A stretch of 46,963 nucleotides of DNA, filler included, from Catajapyx aquilonaris (Eukaryota): the NCBI GenBank assembly GCA_000934665.2. It is 2 parts of 2 records of this genome, joined end to end, with 100 filler letters (N's around TTAATTAATTAA, not from the genome) between each part and the next. Parts side by side here need not be neighbours in the genome. Positions count along the whole stretch, not along the records: positions 1 to 23,440 come from JYFJ02005682.1; 1 more part is not named here. The stretch is one strand, 5' to 3'. Both the position numbers and the translations under genes were made by a program. The notes below the pieces were generated by a model. It saw only the letters and a list, made by a program, of their open reading frames with translations. It was not told where the DNA came from and did no database searches. Positions 2,308 to 22,715 of the stretch are shown here, in pieces. Position 1 is the first letter of the stretch, and each line of letters opens with the position of its first letter.

Positions 2308-3744
2308 TTACGGAATCCCATTTCCCGGTGAAACAGTAACCTTCCTAAAAGCTCTGTATATCCATGCCCGTGCATCTTTGCAGAACAAAACAACGGCATC
2401 CATGTAGCTCTGGACCCTGAAAGAAATGGAATGAATATATGGGAGACTTTGATATCATATTTTTGCAGTGTACATTATATATGAGATGGAGAAACTTCTC
2501 AAGGATAATATTGTTGAGGTAGGAGTGGAGAAGACTTATACAGTACATCTATCACACACACAAAAGGCTTACCTGTAGATATAAAGGAACACGTTTATTC
2601 CAAAGTAGAGAGAGATGAATGTGTAATATATGTAAGGAGGACTCCAAGGTCCTTCAAAGGTCAATACAAAGATGAGGAAAAACGGAAGTGCAGTATTGGT
2701 GTAAGCAGCTCCCAACAATGTGAGGAGAATTGTCACCCTCTTCTCTCTTTCCTTCAGCTCCTGAAGGGTGTTATCGCCCACATCTCTGCAAATATTGAGA
2801 GGTTTAGTTCTTAATTTTATCAACATGTAGTCACGTGTACATACTTGAAACATTTAAATTGTGACCAGTTTTGACGCAGTTTGATCCAGATGAGAAGGAG
2901 GCAGATCAGAACTATGAACCATGGAAGTATTATAACAATACCGTACGCTGTTTGCTGGCCACCGTAACTCAACATACCACACATACCCTGCTGCCTGCTG
3001 TATCCAAATTCGGAATGAATCTATTGGCATAAAATATATAAATAATATTTTTAAATCCATCGGATATGACATGTGTCAATGTTACTCACACTGGCCGATA
3101 TGGGCACCGCAGCAGACACGACCCAGACCACAACAACGACAGGTATGCTCCCATATGGCTCGAAAGTGACAGCAGCTGCTGCAGGCCACCAGAGTGTCAA
3201 TGTCCTGTGGATCATGAAGACATGATGCTACTATAGGGGTATTTTTCTCTAAGACCTCATTGGGTTATTGTCCTTACCTGCTAAGTGTAGCTGCTGCTAA
3301 GGAATAGGTTGAGGCCACTCCTAGGTAATAGGAGATGAAAACGTATATGTAGCAGAACCTGACTCCTAGTATCCACTTCCGATATAAGTACGCCAATGCT
3401 TCGACTGGAAATACGATGTAGCAGTAGAGACAGTCGGCCAGACTCACGCTGAGAAGGAGGACTGTGATTGTGCTCTTCAGAGGACTTTGATGGTCCCTGG
3501 TCCTCCACCTGGCGTATGGCAATGCGACCAGCACTAGCAAGTTCCCAAATCCTCCGACCACACTCAGGAGGAGCCAGTATGTCGCTGCTATTATCGTGAA
3601 GTATTCAGAATAGTCCGGGAAACAACAGGAAGGAGTATCCTCTTGGGTCAGGCACACCAGAGATGTCTCCTGGTCATCCCTCGAACAAAAGGACGATCTA
3701 TTGAACTCGGCGAGAGAAGTGCTGGCCTCCTCTGAACCAACCAT
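2308..3744 (-). CDS. Class A (rhodopsin-like) GPCR, Tre1/Moody/GPR84-like, copy A1, intact 5-exon model, 359 aa
   Basis: Exons 3744-3278, 3204-3090, 3020-2845, 2785-2573, 2416-2308; all GT-AG, phases compatible, 1080 nt. TM1 GNLLV, TM2 SLADCLYC..P, ECL1 W..G..FC, TM3 end ATLSRT, TM4 VW, ECL2 FGY..GMC, EREKRVT before TM6, TM7 INVFLY. Confidence 0.9.
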
Positions 3745-3907
3745 TGCAAGAGACTAAATGGGTAGAGATATGGATTGTACTGTGATTATGCCAGATGGGA
3801 CTTGATGTGGAGGAATTATTATTCAGCGATAATATCAGCAGGATGTTGTGCGCATGTTATGGCAGAAAACAATGGGACAAACACGGACTATATTCAGAGG
3901 ACTGTGA

Positions 3908-4911: not shown

Positions 4912-5479
4912 GGGAAGGTCACAGGGTGATAATGACGGATCTTGATTACATTTAACATGCAAATACAGGGCAATATATGATACCCAAAAATGAAATATTT
5001 CATGCGGTGGCCTATATTTGCAAAAGTTATGACGTCTTAAAGTTCCAAAAAAACACATTTTCATTGAGTTCATAATGGGATTACATTAGCGACCACATAT
5101 AAGACCACATTGAAGTGTGTAATCAGTTACTACACTTTGTCTCATCGGAAAAAAGTCCTACATAACGGCTCTGTATCTCTTACGGTTTAGACCTTGATAC
5201 CTGTCCACAGACGGACGGACGGACAGAGCCGTTCTGTAGGACTTTTTTCCGATGAGAAAAAGTCCAGAAACTGATTACACACTTCAATGTCATTATATGT
5301 GGTCGCTAATGTAATCCCATTATGAATGAAAATGTATTATTTTTGGAACTTCAAGACGTCATAACTTTTGCAAATATGGGCCTCCGCACGAAATAGTTCA
5401 TTTTTGGGTATCATATATTGTCCTGTATTAGCATGATAAATTTCATCAAGATCCGTCATTATCACCCGGTGACCTTCCC
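4912..5479. mobile_element. Foldback element (~260-bp imperfect inverted arms) with a (GACG)n-containing core
   Basis: gggaaggtcacagggtgataatgacggatcttgat... pairs with ...atcaagatccgtcattatcacccggtgaccttccc; pairing continues inward to ctcatcggaaaaaagtcctaca/tgtaggacttttttccgatgag. Confidence 0.9.
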
Positions 5480-5533
5480 TTGTGAGCATTGTCTGTAGCA
5501 TAATTTTTACACTCAAATTTGCAGGGAATAATC

Positions 5534-8500
5534 ATGGCTACAGCAATGGTGGACCAGAGCCTGGTAGACTTGCACTATGCTGCCGAAAATGGGTCTCTGA
5601 CAACTGTCAAGATGCTGCTGGACAAAGGAGAGGAAGTGGACGCCCGTACCAGGAATGGAGTGACCCCACTGATGGTGGCCTCCAGACGTGGTTGGATTCC
5701 AGTGTGCGAGGAACTGGTCAAGAGGGGGGCAAGGGTCAACCTGGCCTCCACTGACCAGGACAAGACTGCCCTTCACGAAGCATCTGAATTCAACCATCTG
5801 CAGGTGTGTCGCCTTCTTCTGGAGGAAGGGGCAGATCCAATGGTGAAGACCAAGGTGGATGACACCCCTCTGCACACGGCAGCGGAGCATGGAAATGTCC
5901 TCCTGGGGAGGCTTCTCTTGGAGTGGGGGGCAGATCCTGGAGACAAGAATATGGAGAAGATGACGCCTAGAGGGTTGGCAGTGAAGAAGGATCGAACTGA
6001 AATGGTCAAGTTCCTTGTGAACATTGTAGAGGACATGCACATAATGGCGGCTATGGGAAGGGAAGAGGACGTCCAGAATTTGTTGAGGAAAAGTGATGTG
6101 AACAAGAGAAATGGACATGGGGCGACTCCCCTGATGGTAGCTTGTAGGGCCATGAAGGTTGGAATTTGTCGGTCCCTTCTGGATGGGACTAGGCAGGACG
6201 AGGTGGACACGAGGGACTTGGAGGGAAGGACAGCCCTTCACTGGTCTGCCAGGAGTGGTCTGATCCAGACGTGCAGACTCCTCCTGGACAGAGGGGCCTC
6301 CGTGGACACTCGCACCGTCCACACTGGTCACACTCCGCTGCACTTGGCCTGCATGTTTGGCCATCTGGAGATGGCCAGTCTTCTCTTGGTGGACGGAAAC
6401 AGTGACCCCCAGGCCACGGACAAGGATGGGGCCACACCAGCCTCTCTTGCCCTTCTCAAGGGTCATGTACAAGTGCACCGATTCATCATGGATCACTTGC
6501 AGTTAACTCATGCCAGACAGGCCAGGTTAGTACATCCGTTAGTACAGTGCCATGTCACTCATTAAAATCCTTTCTTCAGGGCTGATGTCAACAGTACGAA
6601 GGAAACGACAGTCGTGTCCAGATACATGTCGGACTACAAGCAGGAGTCCATCTTGGGTGAGGGATCCTTTGGGGTTGTGGCCGAGGCGGAATTGAAGCTG
6701 GCAAAGGCACGTTACGCAGTCAAGAGGGTTCCTTTGCCTCAAGACAATCAGTTGAAGGAGGTCATTCTGAGGGAAGTGCAGGCACAGGCTCGACTGGACC
6801 ACGATCACGTTGTGAAGTTCCATCACGCTTGGACTGAGAGCGCTCCGTGTTGGGTCCATAAGGAGTGGGACGCCATGACTGCCACATGCTCTCTCAGGCA
6901 TGGTCCAGAGGCAATGGAGGCCTCAGAGGCCGCATCCGTGTACTTCTCCTCTCCCATGACGGTGACAGGACCAACCACGAACTTCCTCTTCATGCAGCTT
7001 GAACTATGTCAAAAGGAGACACTCGGACACAGGATGGACAGAGGACTGAACCTGTGCAAGTTCGCCAAACTCACCCTCTTCAGACAAATCGCATCCGCAG
7101 TGTGTTACATACACTCCAAAGGGTTGATCCACCGCGATCTGAAACCACACAATATCCTGTTTGACCTGGATGGAAAATATGTGAAGATTGGAGACTTTGG
7201 TCTGTCCACCTCCCTTCTGGCCTGTCCTTCCCACAATCCAGGTCATGGTGACCAGTCCACTTCAGATGACCCATATGAATCAGGAGTCTCCAATCTTCCT
7301 TCACCACCTGAGATGACTGTGGGTGTTGGAACGCGACTGTACTGCTCCCCTGAGCAGATCAGTGGGAGGGTGTATGGTCCGAAGACTGACGTGTACTCCA
7401 TGGGTCTTGTCCTCTTTGAGCTCTTGTCCCTGTTTGGAGAAGACAAGGACAGGAGGACACAAGCCTTCATCGCACTCAGAAATGGGGATCCTCTACCAGA
7501 TGACTTTACGAGCAAGAATGCTGACGAAGCAAGGTTGATACAGAGGATGTTGACACCCGATGCGTCTTCCCGAGTGGTGTCTTCCTACGTGGAGAAACAT
7601 GTTCAGATGTCGCTGGACAGGAAGAAAAAGGTAGGCATGAATGGTGTTATCTGCTGAGCTGATTGGTACTATCTTCCTCTGATTTCAGATGGACACCAAG
7701 GGATACTTTCATGCCTGCAAGAAGGATGTCCTCTCTGAGGTTGAGGACTGGGTTGATGTGAAGGGGGTTGATGTTGTTGGGACAGAGGATTCGTTTAAGC
7801 GAAGAAGTGGGATCCATTACGCTGCTCGGAGGGGTCATTCCCAAGTGGTCCGCTTCCTCTTGGACAGGGGAGGGGAAGTGGACGCACTGAATCGGAGGCA
7901 TGAGACACCCCTGCATCGGGCTGCATTCTGCGGCCATAAGTCGACCGTCCTCCTCCTCTTGGACAGGGGGGCAGATCCGTGGAAAAGAAACGTGGATGGT
8001 AAAACTCCAGGAGAGATGGCAATGGCAGGAGGCTACCACTCGCTCTCTTTGCTTATACAGGAGAAGGACTTCAGAGACGACCTTAGGACCTTAGGGAATG
8101 AACCCAAGTCAGATGGAAGGGTAAATGGTGCTTTCATGCAGTCGTTTTAAACTATTTCTTCTATAAAAAATTGTCTACTCGAATCACACTCGCATGATTT
8201 GCCAATCTTGTTTGCTTTTGTCTTGTTTTCTGAATGGTGTTGTTGTTCCCGTACAGACGAGGTCCATGTTTCTGGACGCGTGTAGGAGAGGCGGATTGGA
8301 TGATGTGAAGAGGCTAGTGGAGGAATGTGGAGGTATGGTGGAGAGGTGGGTTGGAGTGTGGGATAAGCACGGACTGAGTGGTCTGCACCTGGCTGCTATG
8401 GAAGGAAGAGACGGGTTGTTCCCATACCTTCTGGGAGGAGGATGGCCTGTGAACCAGGATGACAATGTGGGAAGAACAGCCCTCCATCTGGCAGCACGGG

Positions 8501-8838
8501 GAGGACACCTTTCGACGTGCATGGTACTGCTTTGGGAAGGGGCAGACGTTGGGGTAAAGAACGAGGATGGTAATCAGCCCATCCACCTTGCATCTCGGGG
8601 AGGCCACATCCAGGTTGTGGACCTACTCCTGAAGGAAGGGGCAGGGCTGGAGGACAAAGGAGACGAGAACTGGACCCCACTCCACTATGCAACAGGGATG
8701 AACCAACTCGAACTGGTTCACTTCCTTCTATCCAAAGGAGCGGACAAGTCGGCCGAGGACGTACATGGGAGGACACCCCTTCATCTGGCAGAGATGATGA
8801 ACTTTGTTCTTGTCGTCACTCTTTTAAAAGGCTTATGA
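5534..8838 (+). CDS. Ankyrin-repeat / eIF2-alpha-kinase-like (PERK-type domain) / ankyrin-repeat protein, 4 coding exons, ~1018 aa
   Basis: Exons 5534-6525, 6580-7630, 7689-8120, 8257-8838; introns GTTAGT..tttcttcAG (54 nt, phase 2), GTAGGC..tttcAG (58 nt, phase 0), GTAAAT..gtacAG (136 nt, phase 0) all preserve frame; 3057 nt. ANK TPLH/TALH repeats; kinase motifs SRYMSDY, LGEGSFG, YAVKRV, LREVQAQARLDHDHVVKFHHAW, FLFMQLELC, HRDLKPHN, KIGDFGL, TVGVGTRLYCSPEQ, TDVYSMGLVLFEL. Confidence 0.88.
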
Positions 8839-9059
8839 CGAATCATAAAATGCTGTAGTCTATCGCAGGCAAATGTTTGTTTTCGTTATGATTTTATTAA
8901 TTTTGATAATTAGTTGGTAGGTTATGCAAGTGGCTCTCTCTGGGATATCTTGGGTCTTTATACCACACACATTGTTCTTGATGATTCACATGAAACAAAC
9001 CTGCCGTAAGAAAGTTTCATTTGTTCAGCTCCCAGTGTGCGAAGTCTGTAATGAGAAGT

Positions 9060-9205
9060 TTCGCTATGCATAGCCTCTTCAGAAGTCCAAATCTAACCCC
9101 GATGGACTCTGTGGAAACACAATCAATGGGCACAGCAGCAGACAAGACCCAGACCACATCAACGACAGGAATGCTCACATATGGCTCGAACGTGATTAGA
9201 GTAGA
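9060..9205 (-). pseudogene. Fragment of a type-A GPCR copy (A2): exon 2 and start of exon 3
   Basis: TFEPYVSIPVVDVVWVLSAAVPI matches exon 2 (TFEPYGSIPVVVVVWVVSAAVPI) of A1; followed by tttccacag and an RFG..LC remnant. Confidence 0.8.
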
Positions 9206-9299
9206 CTTTTTCATGGACTTCCCCTTTTCCCCCTCCCTCCTCCTACCCCCAGACCACCCCCTTCTCATTTAAAAATATATATCCTATCAAGCCCATTTT

Positions 9300-9424
9300 T
9301 TAGACCTTTTCTCGTCCATCGAAAAAAGTCTTATAGCACGGCTCTGTCTGTCTGATACCTGTCCACAGACAGACAGACAGACAGAGCCGTTCTGTAGGAC
9401 TTTTTTTCTTGAAAAAGTCTAAAA
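9300..9424. mobile_element. Core of the 4912-5479 element family, with (GACA)n microsatellite and short inverted arms
   Basis: catcgaaaaaagtcttatagcacggctctgt...gatacctgtccacagacagacagacagacagagccgttctgtaggactttttt matches ~5140-5265 in the same orientation. Confidence 0.8.
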
Positions 9425-9926
9425 GGGATGAGGATCCATCATTTTATTGTCCCTTCTCTTGTGTTGAGATTATTGCGGCCTAATTAAACTAAGGCGTATG
9501 TTTGGATATTGTATCTGTCGTGGGGGATGTACCACAAACAATGGCCAGGTGTGACTTGATGTGGAGGAATTCGTGAGTGATATCAGGCGCGTTTATTACG
9601 TCAGAAAACAATGGGACAGGAACCATGCAGCTTCTGGCATAATTAATTATATGAGGGTTATAAATAAGTTACTTGACGAAATCATATTTCGTAACACCAC
9701 CAGACGGAACGGATCACAAAATCTTTAAAACACCAACCAAGCAACTGATCTGATAGCAATGATTTGGACACCTTTGATATTCATGCTACTTCCAATCAAC
9801 AAACAGTCGCAATGGGACTGTCTATGTCCACTGTTGTCACACGCGACACCAGTTGAGTGCATCTCTTTTCAACAAAACAAGTCAATTACCGGTACGTAGA
9901 GTTCTCGGTTGTATTTTATTATTCCG

Positions 9927-11875
9927 TCAGAATGTTGATTGGATTTTGCTTAACTTCCCACGTTGCAGGTCTAGTGTGTCTCTGTAGAGTAGAATAAATG
10001 CATCTCGGTAGCTCGGTATCCTGCAATGATGATAGGAACATCTTCTGTGATGACTAGGGAACGGATTTCTAGGTTCTAAAAAACCCTCAAATAGGTAGGC
10101 ATTTAGGCCCTGAAAACAGTCAAAATAGGCTCTTAAATAGGCACTATAAATCAACCTGGTTCAAATTTATTTTAATTTCTACACATATTTACAGCATACT
10201 CCTGGCCATGGAATTTTGCAGCGCCGTAACGAACTAGCAGTTATTCCATATTTTCGTTTGTTAACCGCAGTTATTCGGCGACAGTTAGCATTCTCCCTCA
10301 CGGGGAGCCAATATGGCCGATAGAAAAGCCGTCGGGCCGAATGTAGCAGCTTATTTAACGGCTATTAATAGCAGTGATTTCGAGTCTCAATAACGGTTAA
10401 CGGCATATTACCAGGGATCTTACCCATCAGCCGCTTCTTCGCTCGTCACAAGTTGAAGTGGGAGGGATTCCTTGAACGGAAAACCTGCAGAACTCTCGAA
10501 AATCTTACCAAACGACGTGAAAAAGGTCGAAATAGGTACTAATAGGTGCTAATAGGCCATTTAGGTCCCAACATCCGAAATAGGCATTATTAGGTTCTAT
10601 AAAACTACGATTTTTGAGGTCCTTGTGTTATGAAACGGATAGATATTTTGGTTCCGGTGTTCTGCCTACAAAAGAAAAAGTAGGTAAAAACCTAGAAATC
10701 CGTTCTCTAGTGATGACAGACAGAAACACGCAGCATTGTTGGAGTAACGTAATGAATTACCTATATACGTAAAGAAATACGTTGATGACGTAGTAGTATT
10801 GCAAGATGACTTCCAGTGATAAGACAGTCCCAGAAGAGTCAGAAGAACAGTCATTCTCTTCTCTCTTTCCTTCAGGTCATGCAAGGTTTTCGCACCAATA
10901 TCTCTGCAAACAATACGCTCAGTTCCATGCGTTCCAGCATAGTTAGACTGTTTAAACCCCGTACTTGGATTGCTTCAGTTGAGACCAACTTTGACGCAGT
11001 TTGGCCCAGATGAGAAGGAGGCACACCAAGACAGTGGCCCACGTAAAGCACAGAGAAAACCCGTAGAGTACATTATGCCTGTTTCCATTATTATTTATTC
11101 CTTGACCCATTACTGCACACAATCCTCTTGTTCTTCTGTATCCGAACCCATACATACTGAAACCTTTGCACGTTTTACAATTTTAATACGCATCCTGACT
11201 ATTTTGGAAATATTATTTTCTCGCTTCTTTGTCATCTTACCCCCTCAAATATTGGAACCACTGCACTGCTGCGAACATCCACACTGCCACCGCCGCAGGG
11301 ATACCACTGCGCCACTTGGGATGGAGGAACATGCAGGCCACCACAGATCCAGTGCCCTTTGCAGGAGGAATACAGTAGTTCAAATTGTGGCTTACTAATA
11401 TGAGGCTGCCATACCTGCAGAGTGTGGCGGCTGCTGCCAACGAAATGGTGGAAGCCATGAAGAGATAAAAGCCCATGAATCCCACAATGTGGCAGTACGT
11501 GGGGCTAAGGACCCACTTTCTGTATAGAAACGTCAGTGCCAAAGCAGGCAATATGTTGACACAGTAGAGGCCATCGGCCAGACTCAGGCTGAGCAGGAGG
11601 ACAGTGGTGCAGTTCTTGAGGGGACTTCTAGGGTCCTTGGTCTTCCACCTGGCATATGGAATGGCCACCAGAGCTAGCAAGTTGCTCAATCCTCCGACCA
11701 CACTCATGAGTAGCCAGTATGTTCCTACTATCACTGTGAAGTATTCAGGGTGGTCCGGGAAGCAGCATGATGGCACCTCCTGTTGGGTCAGACACACCAG
11801 AGATGTCACCTGGTCGTCTCTGGTGCAGAAGGAAGACAAGTTCATGCTGATGGACGTGTTGACCCACCCTATCAT
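9927..11875 (-). pseudogene. Type-B Tre1-like GPCR pseudogene (B2), full exon set but frameshifted
   Basis: Exon 1 11875-11415 intact; exon 2 11356-11241 frameshifted with in-frame TGA; exon 3 ~11160-10965; exon 4 10903-10761 is 143 nt versus 213-216 in intact copies (frameshifting deletion); exon 5 10020-9927 IPSYRDAFILLYRD. Confidence 0.8.
10055..10709. mobile_element. Non-autonomous hAT element in the last intron of B2
   Basis: TIR tagggaacggatttctaggtt / aacctagaaatccgttctcta; 8-bp TSD GTGATGAC at 10047-10054 and 10710-10717; subterminal aaatagg repeats. Confidence 0.9.
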
Positions 11876-12225
11876 GGCAAGCGACTAGAGAGAAAGAGTG
11901 TTGCGCTATTGGCACTCATAAGCGATGACATAGCAGTGAATATGCAAGCACTCCTGAATGTCATATCAAGGAGACACACTCTCCATGCATTGCTAGAACA
12001 CACAGTCACCATCACTCTCTGACAGGCGGCCTGTTGACATACTGTATGTGCATTTTTCGATGATAAGAAAAATCATAAAACGTACAGTAAGCTATTAGAG
12101 AAGAAATGTGAAGAGAAATGTTTATTTCTGCTTTATGACAACGTGTTATCACAGTGGTCTCTGTGTCTTTAAGACGATAACATTCTTGTCGTTTTGGGGC
12201 ACCTAGGAACATCATGCTGTTTCAG

Positions 12226-13704
12226 TTAGGGAATCGGGCGTCCAGGTGAAACAGCGACCTTCCTAAAACACCTGCGCATCCAGGTCCGTGCATCTTTGTA
12301 GAACAAAACAAGGGCATCCATGTAACTCTGGACCCTGAAAGAGAGGAGTGAATAGATGGACGTTTTTGACTGATCGCACTTCACCAGTAGGCCTACAAAT
12401 AGAGTAAGCCCACGTCATGAAACGGAGAGGTTTTCTCACAGTAGTGGTTTTGAGATAGAAATGGAGAAAAGTGGTAGGCTAATATTGTTACACAAAAAGT
12501 ATTACCTGTAGATATAAATGAACACGTTTATCGCGAAGTAGTAGTGCACGATGAATGTATAGTATATGTACGGAGGACTCCAAGGTCCTTCAGGGGTAAA
12601 CATGTAGATGAGGGAAACCGGAAGTGTAGTGCCGGTGTAGGCAGCTCCCAGCAATGTGAGGAGAATGGCCATCCTCTTTTCTCTTTCTTTCAGCTCCTGA
12701 AGGGTGCTCTTCCCCATTTCTCTGCATATATTGGAACATTTTTTAAAGTTCTTATAGTTTTGTCAATGAGTGGTCACATACTTACTTGAAACGTTTAAAT
12801 TGTGACCAATTTTGACGTAGTTTGATCCAAATTAGCAGGAGGCAGACCTGAACTGTGATCCATGGAAGGGCCATAACCACCCCGAATGCTGTTACCTGCT
12901 CGACGTCACTCATGATACCGCAAAAACCCTGCTCCCGGCTGTATCCCAGTTCGCAATGAATCTGTGTGTTTTAATATAATTAATACCTTAGTCCTTATTA
13001 GGTCGTCGGATAATTCGCATGGCACCGATACTCACACTGGCCGATATGGGAACAGCACTAGACACAACCCAAACCACAGCGACGGCAGGTATGCTCCCAT
13101 ATGGCTCGAAAATGACAGCAGCCCCTGCAGGCCACCAGAGTGACATTGTCCTGTAGACATGAAGAGAATGACGATGATACAATACCATAATAGGGGTATT
13201 CTTCATGGCCTCTAAAACCTGATACGGTAACTGCCTTTACCTACTAAGTGTAGCTGCTGCTAATGAATAGGGTGAGGCCACTGCTATGTAATAGGAGATG
13301 AAAGCGTATATGTAGCAGAACCTATCTCCTAATATCCACTTCTGGTATAAGAACGCCAATGACATGACTGGATAGACCATGAAGCAGAAGAGACAGTCCG
13401 CCAGACTCAGGCTCAGGAGCAAGACCGTGGTGCAACTTTTCAGGGGATTTCGAGGGTCCTTGGTCTTCCACCTGGCATATGGAATGGCCACAAGCACCAG
13501 CAAGTTGCCGAATCCTCCGACCACACTCAGAAGAAGCCAGTATGTCGCTGCTATCACTCTGAAGTATTCAGGATAGTCCGGGAAGCAGCAGGAAGGAGCG
13601 TCATCTTGGGTCAGACACACTAGAGATGTCTCCTGGTCGTCTCTGGAGCAAAAGGACATGTTGAACTCAGCGGTGTAAGTGTGGACCTGCTCTGAACCAG
13701 CCAT
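12226..13704 (-). CDS. Class A GPCR, Tre1/Moody-like, copy A3, intact 5-exon model, 359 aa
   Basis: Exons 13704-13241, 13150-13036, 12961-12786, 12721-12506, 12334-12226; GT-AG, same intron positions and phases as A1; 1080 nt with no internal stop. Confidence 0.9.
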
Positions 13705-14126
13705 TGCAAGAGACTAGATGAGTCAAGTGATGGATTGTTGTGTGAATACATGTGGAGGATTTTCCTCATGTAATGGACTTGATGTGGAGGAGTGTGGAGC
13801 GATAATATCAGTAGGATGCGGTTCGTTTAATATGTCAGAAAACAATGGGACAGAAACCATGCAGACTACTGACATGCGTGAGGATTATGTCATATGTGAC
13901 GAACCCATATTTCGTAACGCTACCAGAAGGAATGGGACTATCACAAAACATTTTTAAAATGAACATTTTCCCCTTAGGAAACAGGAGTAGATATGGGCCA
14001 TCCGTTACGGCATCCTGTTGGGCAGGTACACTGACCCAAGTGATAAACATGGCAATGAACACGTGCTCAATTTCCATACACTTGACAATATGACCATGGG
14101 TTGTATAGCAGTGGTCGACTTAATTT

Positions 14127-16230: not shown

Positions 16231-16279
16231 GAAAATCGATGTATTAAGCACATTAAGCGATTTTTAATCCAAATTCCAG

Positions 16280-17120
16280 TGTTCCAAACGCTGCGGCGGA
16301 GGCTGGAAGACCCGTCGGGTCAAATGTCAGCAGATTCTGGCCTTCGGTCACGTAGTGGACAAAGACTCTGCCCACTGTCCAGACAACAAGCCTAACGATG
16401 ATAGACGTGCCTGCAACCCAAGACCATGTCGTGAGGAAGTAGCCCCAAGGATCGCTTCTTCCAGCAATCAGTCCTACATGCAGGTCACCACAAAGAAGAA
16501 GTTGATCCTGAAGATCGGAGGTCAGGCCGTCGTCTTCCAAGGAACCACCGTCAAGATCAAATGTCCCGTCAAACGGTTCAACAGGTGGGTCACTAAACTT
16601 TTTTTAGCCAACTTTTTCCACTTTTTTTCCATCATATCTGAGGGGGAAAGTGGTTGGCGCAGATGGGGATCTACTACAACTGGTTCCAGCCCGGTTGTTA
16701 TCGAGTTTTTCGTGTGTAGGATCCCTGACGACATGTGCGCCACGTGAAATTGCCTGCACCTAATGGTGGGACCCACGTTTGATGAGATTGAGTATTGATT
16801 TGAAGGAAACTATTGCTTACTTTTTGGGAAGTTGGACGATAGTAATAGTCGACATCGAAAAAGATCTTAAGTGGAAAATCCACAATTGAAGTTGAAATTG
16901 AAGTGGAAAATTCTTCCAGTTATTTGGAATTGACGTTTGTAGGATATTAGGATGAATATTTTTTAGCCAATTGGATTGTTTGTTGTTTTCAGGGCCAAGA
17001 TCATGTGGGCCAAGAACCATGAGTATATCAAGAAGTCCAAGAAGTACGGGGTGTCCAAGAAGGGGGCGCTCAGGATCAGGGAGGTCACGTTCAGCGATAG
17101 TGGGATCTACACTTGCATAG
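16280..17120 (+). CDS. Two internal exons of an ADAMTS-like (madd-4/nolo/ADAMTSL1-3) gene: TSP1 repeat plus Ig-like domain
   Basis: Exons 16280-16584 (CSKRCGGGWKTRRVKC...CPDNKP...RACNPRPC...KIKCPVKRFNR) and 16993-17120 (AKIMWAKN...GALRIREVTFSDSGIYTCI); canonical splice sites, phase-2 join in frame. Confidence 0.85.
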
Positions 17121-18178: not shown

Positions 18179-18481
18179 TCAGGCAGATGATTGCTGGTAG
18201 TTCTTAACTGCCATGAGCTTCTTTCCACACATGGCACAGATCCCCTTTTTGTATGCACATGACTGGCAGAAATGGGAACCAGTTTGGTGAACCGTCTGAT
18301 GGCATATTCGACACTCGTTGAACTTGTTGGTGTAAGGGTTGAAACGTGCCTTCTTAGATGTCAGAAGCTTGTTCTCATTGACTTTCCGACCGCCACTCTC
18401 GATTGTGTTGCGAGCCCCTGCCTTCCATGAGTCAGGTGTTATCACACGACCTAGCTTACTCTGGCACTTATCACAGACCAT
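18179..18481 (-). CDS. CRIPT: Cysteine-rich PDZ-binding protein CRIPT, 100 aa, single coding exon
   Basis: MVCDKCQSKLGRVITPDSWKAGARNTIESGGRKVNENKLLT...CRICHQTVHQTGSHFCQSCAYKKGICAMCGKK...YQQSSA; acceptor ctcttacAG 9 nt before the ATG. Confidence 0.95.
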   Translation of the reverse strand: MVCDKCQSKLGRVITPDSWKAGARNTIESGGRKVNENKLLTSKKARFNPYTNKFNECRICHQTVHQTGSHFCQSCAYKKGICAMCGKKLMAVKNYQQSSA

Positions 18482-21859: not shown

Positions 21860-22327
21860 ATGGCTGGTTCAGAGCAGGCCAACACTTACACCGCTGAGTT
21901 CAACATGTCCTTCTGCACAAGAGACGACCAGGAGACATCTCGAGTGTGTCTAACTGAAGAGGATGCTCCATCCTTCCTGCTGCTTCCCGGACTATCCTAC
22001 ATACTTCACAGTGATAGTAGGAACATACTGGATCCTCCTGAGTGTGGTTGGAGGATTCGGCAACTTGCTAGTTCTAGTGGCCATTCCATACGCCAGGTGG
22101 AGGACAACAGATCCTCGAAGTCCCCTGAAGAGTTGCACCACAGTCTTGCTCCTAAGCCTGAGTCTGGCGGACTGTCTCTTCTGCTTCACCTACATACCAG
22201 CAGCAGCATTGGCTTTCTCATACTATAAGTGGATACTAGGAGCTAGGTTCTGCTACTTCCTCTCTTTCATCGGCTATTGCCTAGCAGTGGCCTCACCCAC
22301 TTCCTTAGCAGCAGCTACACTTAGTAG
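21860..22327 (+). pseudogene. Type-A GPCR exon 1 (A4) with a 4-nt frameshift; later exons absent
   Basis: MAGSEQANTYTAEFNMSFCTRDDQET; gctccATCCttcctgc versus gctccttcctgc in A3; continues CCFPDY...ATLSR, donor at 22328, then repetitive sequence. Confidence 0.85.
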
Positions 22328-22330
22328 GTA

Positions 22331-22715
22331 CACTGAAAACCTGGAGTGCATTAAAATATGCACGAAGTGAATATGTGGAGCAGAATATGCACCTATCACA
22401 TGAAATTATGCACGAAATGTCAATGGTTTGCATTATTTTATTCACTTTTGAAAGCTGCATAAATTTATGCAGCGACAACATTCGCTAAGTAAGTAATTAA
22501 ATTCACGATATGAATGATGTTATTCATATAGTGCATATTGACGTCATTTTTATTCATTTCATGCAGTTTATGCAGTAAGTGAATGGAACAAAAGCAGTGC
22601 GTTATTTTATTCACTTACTGCATAAACTGCATAAAATGCAGTAAGTGAATGAAATAATGGACTGCTTTTTTCCATTCACTTACTGCATTTATGCGTTTTA
22701 TGCAGAAGTGAATAA
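22331..22715. repeat. TGCAT/AGTGAAT-rich repetitive element with internal inverted repeats
   Basis: Repeated atgcagtaagtgaat / ttcacttactgcat motifs in both orientations, starting right after the A4 donor. Confidence 0.55.

Follow-up and report, generated by a model that had tools for sequence, protein, structure and literature searches.

Does the genome of Catajapyx aquilonaris encode an eIF2-alpha kinase that is enclosed on both sides by arrays of ankyrin (ANK) repeats and, if so, what would such a protein do? The question is raised by a locus at positions 5534-8838 (+ strand, as are all coordinates of this gene given below) of a 46,963-nt stretch of the assembly GCA_000934665.2, here called the window, of which positions 1-23,440 come from JYFJ02005682.1. 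In each of the eIF2-alpha kinases described so far, the conserved kinase is coupled to a stress sensor that differs from one member to the next. A reading made from the DNA of the window without database searches (hereafter the sequence-only reading) had proposed that this locus encodes a cytosolic relative of PERK carrying ankyrin arrays in place of the usual sensors. We find that the locus is an intact four-exon nuclear gene, as predicted from DNA, and that its predicted product is a soluble ANK-kinase-ANK protein. To judge from sequence and modelled fold the kinase is a member of the eIF2-alpha kinase (eIF2AK or PEK) family, and the arrangement appears to be an undescribed regulatory layout of that family, seen in one genome.

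Gene structure and domain layout

Four stop-to-stop open reading frames (ORFs) lie head to tail at 5504-6565, 6566-7657, 7683-8150 and 8167-8838, and the sequence-only reading had joined pieces of them through short, canonical, phase-matched introns into one protein of 1018 residues. All junction coordinates proved exact at the DNA level, since splicing 5534-6525 to 6580-7630, 7689-8120 and 8257-8838 yields 3057 nt, that is 1018 codons and a TGA, with 0 internal stops. The three GT-AG introns have entry phases of 2, 0 and 0 and occupy 6526-6579 (54 nt), 7631-7688 (58 nt) and 8121-8256 (136 nt); their donors read GTTAGT, GTAGGC and GTAAAT, and their acceptors end in TTTCTTCAG, TGATTTCAG and CCCGTACAG respectively, all of them pyrimidine-rich and closing with CAG. 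Intron 1 contains an in-frame TAA at 6563-6565, retention of intron 2 leads to a stop at 7655-7657, and intron 3 contains a piece of a high-copy repeat (8173-8213). The GC content of the exons is 0.52-0.56 and that at third codon positions (GC3) 0.57-0.64, both in line with the coding ORFs of the neighbouring genes (GC3 0.56-0.66); inside exactly the three predicted introns the GC content is 0.36-0.43 (0.389 in intron 1) and in the flanks of the gene 0.39-0.41. This contrast in composition between exons and introns is far beyond chance expectation. A possible acceptor AG at 5523-5524 is in frame with the exon 1 ATG, so that an intron in the 5' untranslated region or an extra upstream exon is possible.

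Using Pfam, Ank families were assigned to exons 1, 3 and 4 and Pkinase to exon 2. Exon 1 (5534-6525) provides the start ATG and an N-terminal array of ~10 ANK repeats spanning residues 13-326 (Ank E 4e-59), two central repeats of which are degenerate. Exon 2 (6580-7630) holds the entire eIF2AK-family kinase domain at protein residues ~344-671 (Pkinase E 9e-44). Exon 3 (7689-8120), whose first codon is ATG, encodes a linker and ~4 further repeats (Ank E 5e-15), and exon 4 (8257-8838) ~6 repeats and the TGA stop (Ank E 1.5e-32). These counts combine a hidden Markov model (HMM) built from the gene's own ANK repeats, which marked 14 of them, with an assignment by eye of the weaker or degenerate repeats in between. 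No transmembrane (TM) segment was found by hydropathy, the top 19-residue Kyte-Doolittle mean being 1.42, and none of the luminal, dsRBM, Z-alpha, HisRS or haem domains was detected by Pfam in the ANK-kinase-ANK protein, where only Ank families accompany the kinase. The proposed order of ~10 repeats, kinase, ~4 repeats and ~6 repeats, with no TM helix and no luminal, HisRS-like, haem, dsRBM or Z-alpha sensor, was therefore upheld by Pfam, the own-repeat HMM and hydropathy together. No further kinase or ANK gene was found in the window. Among the 60 best Protein Data Bank (PDB) matches shown for the exon 1 array, the top ones were ankyrin-1/2, NOMPC and DARPins, and a single-sequence AlphaFold2 (AF2) model of this exon reached a predicted local distance difference test (pLDDT) score of 42.5, too low to be of use.

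Family membership and affinity of the kinase

The family of the kinase was assessed using sequence and fold searches of the PDB. The 19 best distinct sequences were all PERK, GCN2, PKR or HRI (E 4.5e-51 to 7.8e-33), headed by PERK (3qd2, E 4.5e-51), and the 20th was SIK3 at E 1.4e-19. An AF2 model of the kinase built with a 35-sequence alignment had a pLDDT of 85.7, and Foldseek placed PERK at ranks 1-12, followed by PKR and GCN2; a Protein Atlas search returned generic kinase clusters only. The drop in PDB scores from 7.8e-33 to 1.4e-19, together with the Foldseek ranking, bears out the family membership that had been proposed from motifs, the assignment resting on the score gap because the tree described below has no non-eIF2AK outgroup.

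Residue conservation was followed in an alignment of 57 kinase units, hand-picked from 269 retrieved proteins (7 more chosen proteins were excluded for want of a full unit) and labelled by family according to their accessory Pfam domains and source names. The window kinase matches 52 of the 60 columns that are conserved at 85% or more across the 35 known eIF2AK units, and the 8 mismatching columns are mostly conservative (R/K, Y/F, I/M, M/L, L/M, I/V, E/D and L/Q). In a further alignment, A1, it matches the invariant columns K48, E65, H184, R185, D186, N191, D205 and G207, and the G-loop is also present. The catalytic Lys, residue 48 of exon 2 and K379 of the protein, is encoded at 6722-6724, the HRD motif of the catalytic loop (H184, R185 and D186) at 7130-7138 and the DFG motif (D205 and G207) at 7193-7201. 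An insert of ~47 residues between beta4 and beta5 (6842-6982; pLDDT 67-79) separates A-W-T-E from F-L-F-M-Q. In the N-lobe, S-R-Y-M-S-D aligns with the S-R-y-x-x-d consensus of the family, which holds the R-x-x-x-D dimer pair (R345 and D349 of the protein), and the activation segment T-x-x-V-G-T-x-x-Y-x-S-P-E-Q is kept, with T246 and T251 of exon 2 (within T-x-x-V-G-T, 7316-7333) falling in columns of alignment A1 where T makes up at least 90%; these two we take to be the positions of PKR T446 and T451. All of the eIF2AK hallmark motifs quoted in the sequence-only reading are accordingly present in the alignment, and the residues it had listed as intact (catalytic Lys, alphaC Glu, HRD, DFG, the activation-loop Thr pair and the N-lobe R-x-x-x-D pair) match their columns. 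As far as sequence can tell, the catalytic machinery of the kinase is intact.

A maximum-likelihood tree (58 rows, 328 columns, no outgroup) placed the window kinase inside a starred set (98/97) comprising 9 PERK units and 17 unlabelled units from invertebrates, oomycetes and others, with PKR, PKZ, GCN2 and HRI on the opposite side of the split. Kinase units from Daphnia and Pristionchus formed a group of their own in this tree. The earlier description of the kinase as PERK-derived stands in part: the best sequence and fold matches and the PERK side of the starred split speak for it, but the end branch is long (1.6), the place of the kinase within the PERK-side set is not resolved, and a grouping of the kinase with PKR and PKZ was not rejected in an approximately unbiased (AU) test (log-likelihood difference 8.29, p 0.172). 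PERK-like is the best reading of the affinity of the kinase, on both sequence and model, and is not proven.

The predicted protein shares features with several known systems and departs from each of them. PERK (EIF2AK3), in addition to its position as best match, has in common with it the insert, the N-lobe S-R-Y-x-x-D and the activation-loop Thr pair; unlike PERK, the window protein has no signal peptide, luminal domain or TM segment by Pfam and hydropathy, carries ANK arrays on both sides of the kinase and has Glu in place of the helix alphaG Thr. PKR (EIF2AK2) and fish PKZ resemble it as cytosolic eIF2-alpha kinases in which the kinase is preceded by an exchangeable sensor module and as a fast-diversifying multi-copy family, whilst the window protein has no dsRBM or Z-alpha by Pfam and bears an additional module after the kinase, and the tree favours the PERK side. 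It differs from GCN2 in having no RWD, pseudokinase or HisRS-like domains, and from HRI in having no haem-binding N-terminal or helical domain (both by Pfam), these two families also lying across the 98/97 split. RNase L is likewise cytosolic and combines an N-terminal ankyrin array, which binds 2-5A and drives dimerisation, with a kinase-fold domain. The analogy with RNase L drawn in the sequence-only reading survives as a conceptual likeness, but the window protein has no C-terminal RNase (KEN) domain, its kinase is catalytically complete with eIF2-alpha kinases as its best matches, and RNase L is absent from the 60 best PDB matches shown for the kinase and for the ANK exon alike. Ankyrin repeats and a protein-kinase fold also occur in one chain in ILK, TNNI3K, RIPK4/ANKK1 and DAPK1; these are kinases of other groups, and none is among the 60 best PDB matches shown.

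Distribution of the architecture and probable paralogues in Catajapyx

The same architecture was sought in other species by two routes. A word-indexed search of longer proteins gave 250 matches at E <= 1e-10, and the Ank Pfam family was found in 0 of the 120 listed. With HMMER, 1.84 billion representatives were searched exhaustively, and 571 matched at E <= 1e-30; none of the 150 of these that are listed, PERK included, exceeds 46% identity to the window kinase, so that the protein and its close relatives are not in that representative library, and a Pfam scan of 44 of the 150 found Ank in 0. The HMM of the gene's own ANK repeats was positive in 0 of the 269 retrieved relatives. The best HMMER match was a mite tandem-kinase model with the source name EIF2AK3, and other near matches were tandem kinases from Pristionchus and an oribatid mite. 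Tandem kinase units were noted in P0121 (Halotydeus destructor), P0131, P0138, P0219 (Pristionchus) and P0216 (Medioppia), and in P0019 (Daphnia sinensis) an eIF2AK-like kinase is fused to small-GTPase Pfam families. Literature searches, supplements not covered, found no published ANK-plus-eIF2AK protein, and the word 'ankyrin' has 0 occurrences in the available text of two eIF2AK papers (PMC5851622 and PMC5025754). The earlier statement that no protein of this architecture was known has thus withstood the survey of relatives, as far as the matches listed go, and that of the literature.

Within Catajapyx aquilonaris the gene appears to have company. DNA contigs of one sample, which is probably the source of the assembly, include a single 1152-nt contig that covers 7060-8211 at a depth of ~30 with 0 or 1 differences, and contig depth is single-copy over 7205-8093. 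Coverage of exon 1 and the N-lobe (5554-7085) comes from short, fragmented contigs with a summed depth of 170-690, and this raised and broken pattern fits close paralogues with a common first ANK exon and N-lobe. One contig ~92% identical to 5650-5950 differs at 24 sites, 15 of them at third codon positions (binomial p 0.003). Of the resulting codon changes 12 are synonymous and 7 non-synonymous, which points to purifying selection on the exon 1 reading frame. Taken at sequence level, the gene belongs to a multi-copy and apparently lineage-restricted family.

High-copy repeats adjoin the gene at ~5300-5486 and ~8856-9100, with one piece also in intron 3, and the bins that bear them have a summed contig depth of ~1,700 to 50,000 vs ~30 for the gene; run X5, whose kind is not on record, matches the flanking repeats only. 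Short strings that look like ORFs and resemble one another are present at both 5068-5336 and 9287-9443. In three runs of the one sample, contigs join 5483, the end of the upstream repeat, to 6557, from which the last 23 nt of intron 1 follow, with 30 other letters in between. This contig was initially read as a paralogue with a different first exon, a reading set aside for a simpler one, namely that it is probably a paralogous kinase exon whose intron carries a copy of the high-copy repeat.

Proposed function, alternatives and genomic surroundings

We favour, with somewhat better than even confidence, a reading in which the gene is intact and encodes a soluble ANK-gated PEK-family kinase, activated through N-lobe dimerisation and acting on eIF2-alpha Ser51. 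PKR and PERK are switched on by back-to-back dimerisation of the N-lobes and autophosphorylation of the activation loop, and by family resemblance the window kinase would be activated in the same way. The two ankyrin solenoids, made of generic ankyrin-like repeats, may serve as protein-binding platforms that control this activation, whether by keeping the kinase inactive or by bringing copies of it together on a bound partner, and the output, again by analogy with the family, would be that eIF2-alpha is phosphorylated on Ser51 and translation is blocked. A more specific version, which we regard as rather unlikely in its full form, is that the solenoids of a PERK-like cytosolic kinase detect a protein or small ligand, e.g. 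a viral or damage-associated one, and so drive dimerisation and translational arrest, making the protein a functional counterpart of PKR and PKZ in animals without PKR; just as tentative is the extension that it belongs to a rapidly diversifying family of arthropod genes whose sensor modules are interchangeable. According to the available part of PMC5025754, PKR was not found in invertebrates, which have two such kinases. If the favoured reading is true, an ankyrin-wrapped soluble eIF2AK would be a new way to couple a signal to translational control and, in arthropods, a candidate sensor for innate immunity or stress. The gene is at present known from one genome only, and its value is limited for now.

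Several observations weigh against an ANK-gated eIF2-alpha kinase. The ANK arrays are of a generic consensus type and do not point to any ligand; among the matches listed, no other species yielded a relative of the same architecture, so that conservation of the layout is not measurable; and to these are added the long end branch and the AU result given above. Further points concern the substrate. The codon at 7439-7441 places Glu (E618 of the protein) at the helix alphaG position of PKR Thr487, a column that holds T in 29, S in 5 and V in 1 of the 35 known units (Thr or Ser in 34 of 35) and is at least 90% T in alignment A1. A one-residue insertion adjoins this Glu, the position receives no hydroxyl residue wherever the gap is placed, and the same short motif carries Met-to-Lys and Glu-to-Asp changes. 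According to the part available of a published mutational scan, Thr487 is one of the few positions under strong constraint in human PKR and is linked to the conformational change of eIF2-alpha (PMC11556786). The window kinase thus departs from the family in its conserved docking Thr, a deviation absent from the sequence-only reading, and because this Thr is replaced by Glu we put eIF2-alpha as its physiological substrate at only about even odds: plausible, not secure. All of these changes in helix alphaG, the constraint on Thr487, the long branch and the occurrence of invertebrate relatives in other layouts (the mite and Pristionchus tandem kinases and the Daphnia sinensis GTPase fusion) would suit a real protein that is a neofunctionalised eIF2AK offshoot, which does not dock eIF2-alpha and phosphorylates partners recruited by its ankyrin arrays. 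We consider this possible but doubtful, as the other hallmarks of the family (the insert, the N-lobe R/D pair and the T-x-x-V-G-T-x-x-Y-x-S-P-E-Q segment) are kept, the model retains helix alphaG at high confidence (exon-2 residues 289-300, pLDDT ~90 or more), and a neighbouring acidic residue could cap the helix. Either way, the Glu offers a natural test of drift in the eIF2-alpha docking surface or of retargeting of the kinase scaffold.

The remaining points against the favoured reading concern the gene model and its integrity. The joining of the four exons is a prediction known here from DNA alone, the length of intron 1 is a multiple of three with a single in-frame stop, ATG is the first codon of exon 3, and the kinase frame may run to a stop 9 codons past the exon 2 donor, within intron 2. 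The locus could then yield separate or differently spliced products, such as an ANK-only protein, an ANK-kinase protein without the C-terminal arrays or a separate downstream ANK gene starting at 7689. The most plausible site for such an artefact is the exon 2-3 junction, because of the exon 3 ATG and the possible stop in intron 2, and for the same reasons the C-terminal fusion is less secure than the N-terminal one. As a whole this alternative is improbable, since no start codon precedes the N-lobe within the kinase exon, whose frame opens a mere 14 nt ahead of a strong acceptor with the donor of the ANK exon 54 nt upstream, and the three introns have canonical ends and a low GC content like that of the flanks; moreover, between the unspliced kinase stop and the ATG at 7689 there are only 31 nt, too few to accommodate a promoter. 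Least probable by far is a recent duplicate that is an unexpressed or decaying copy within the multi-copy family, an incipient pseudogene. The close paralogues in the genome and the high-copy repeats on both sides of the gene and in intron 3 would agree with such a state, as would the lack of a canonical AATAAA within ~960 nt after the stop, where only an ATTAAA at 9483 was found, but 1018 codons are open, all catalytic residues are intact, and the differences from the paralogous contig are in excess at third positions.

A viral origin of the gene was also considered and rejected. Against the window kinase the best giant-virus kinase scored 130 bits, vs 177 for the PDB match to PERK and 199.0 for P0127, the highest-scoring PERK representative, ANK repeats occurred in 0 of 79 viral kinase ORFs, and the gene has spliceosomal introns and a host-like composition. 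The viral kinases themselves, encoded on contigs of giant-virus metagenome-assembled genomes (L001:2719-3891 (+) and 78 further IMG/VR loci), are stand-alone eIF2AK-like kinases of 320-490 residues. For that of L001, eIF2-alpha kinases fill the first 19 places among PDB sequences (E 1.8e-54 to 2.7e-38), followed by a PKR-fusion chain (1.2e-25) and Nek7 (3.3e-25).

The kinase gene is surrounded by a tandem array of rhodopsin-family G protein-coupled receptor genes, represented by four paralogous first exons (7tm_1) with a similar N-terminal segment at 3274-3753 (-), 11237-11884 (-), 13237-13713 (-) and 21954-22370 (+). An ORF at 16268-16747 (+) encodes a thrombospondin type 1/ADAMTS-type repeat and is probably one exon of a larger gene. 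At 18182-18481 (-) lies an intronless CRIPT gene of 100 codons (Pfam Cript E 5e-36), whose best named matches are from arthropods at 75-79% identity, none being identical.

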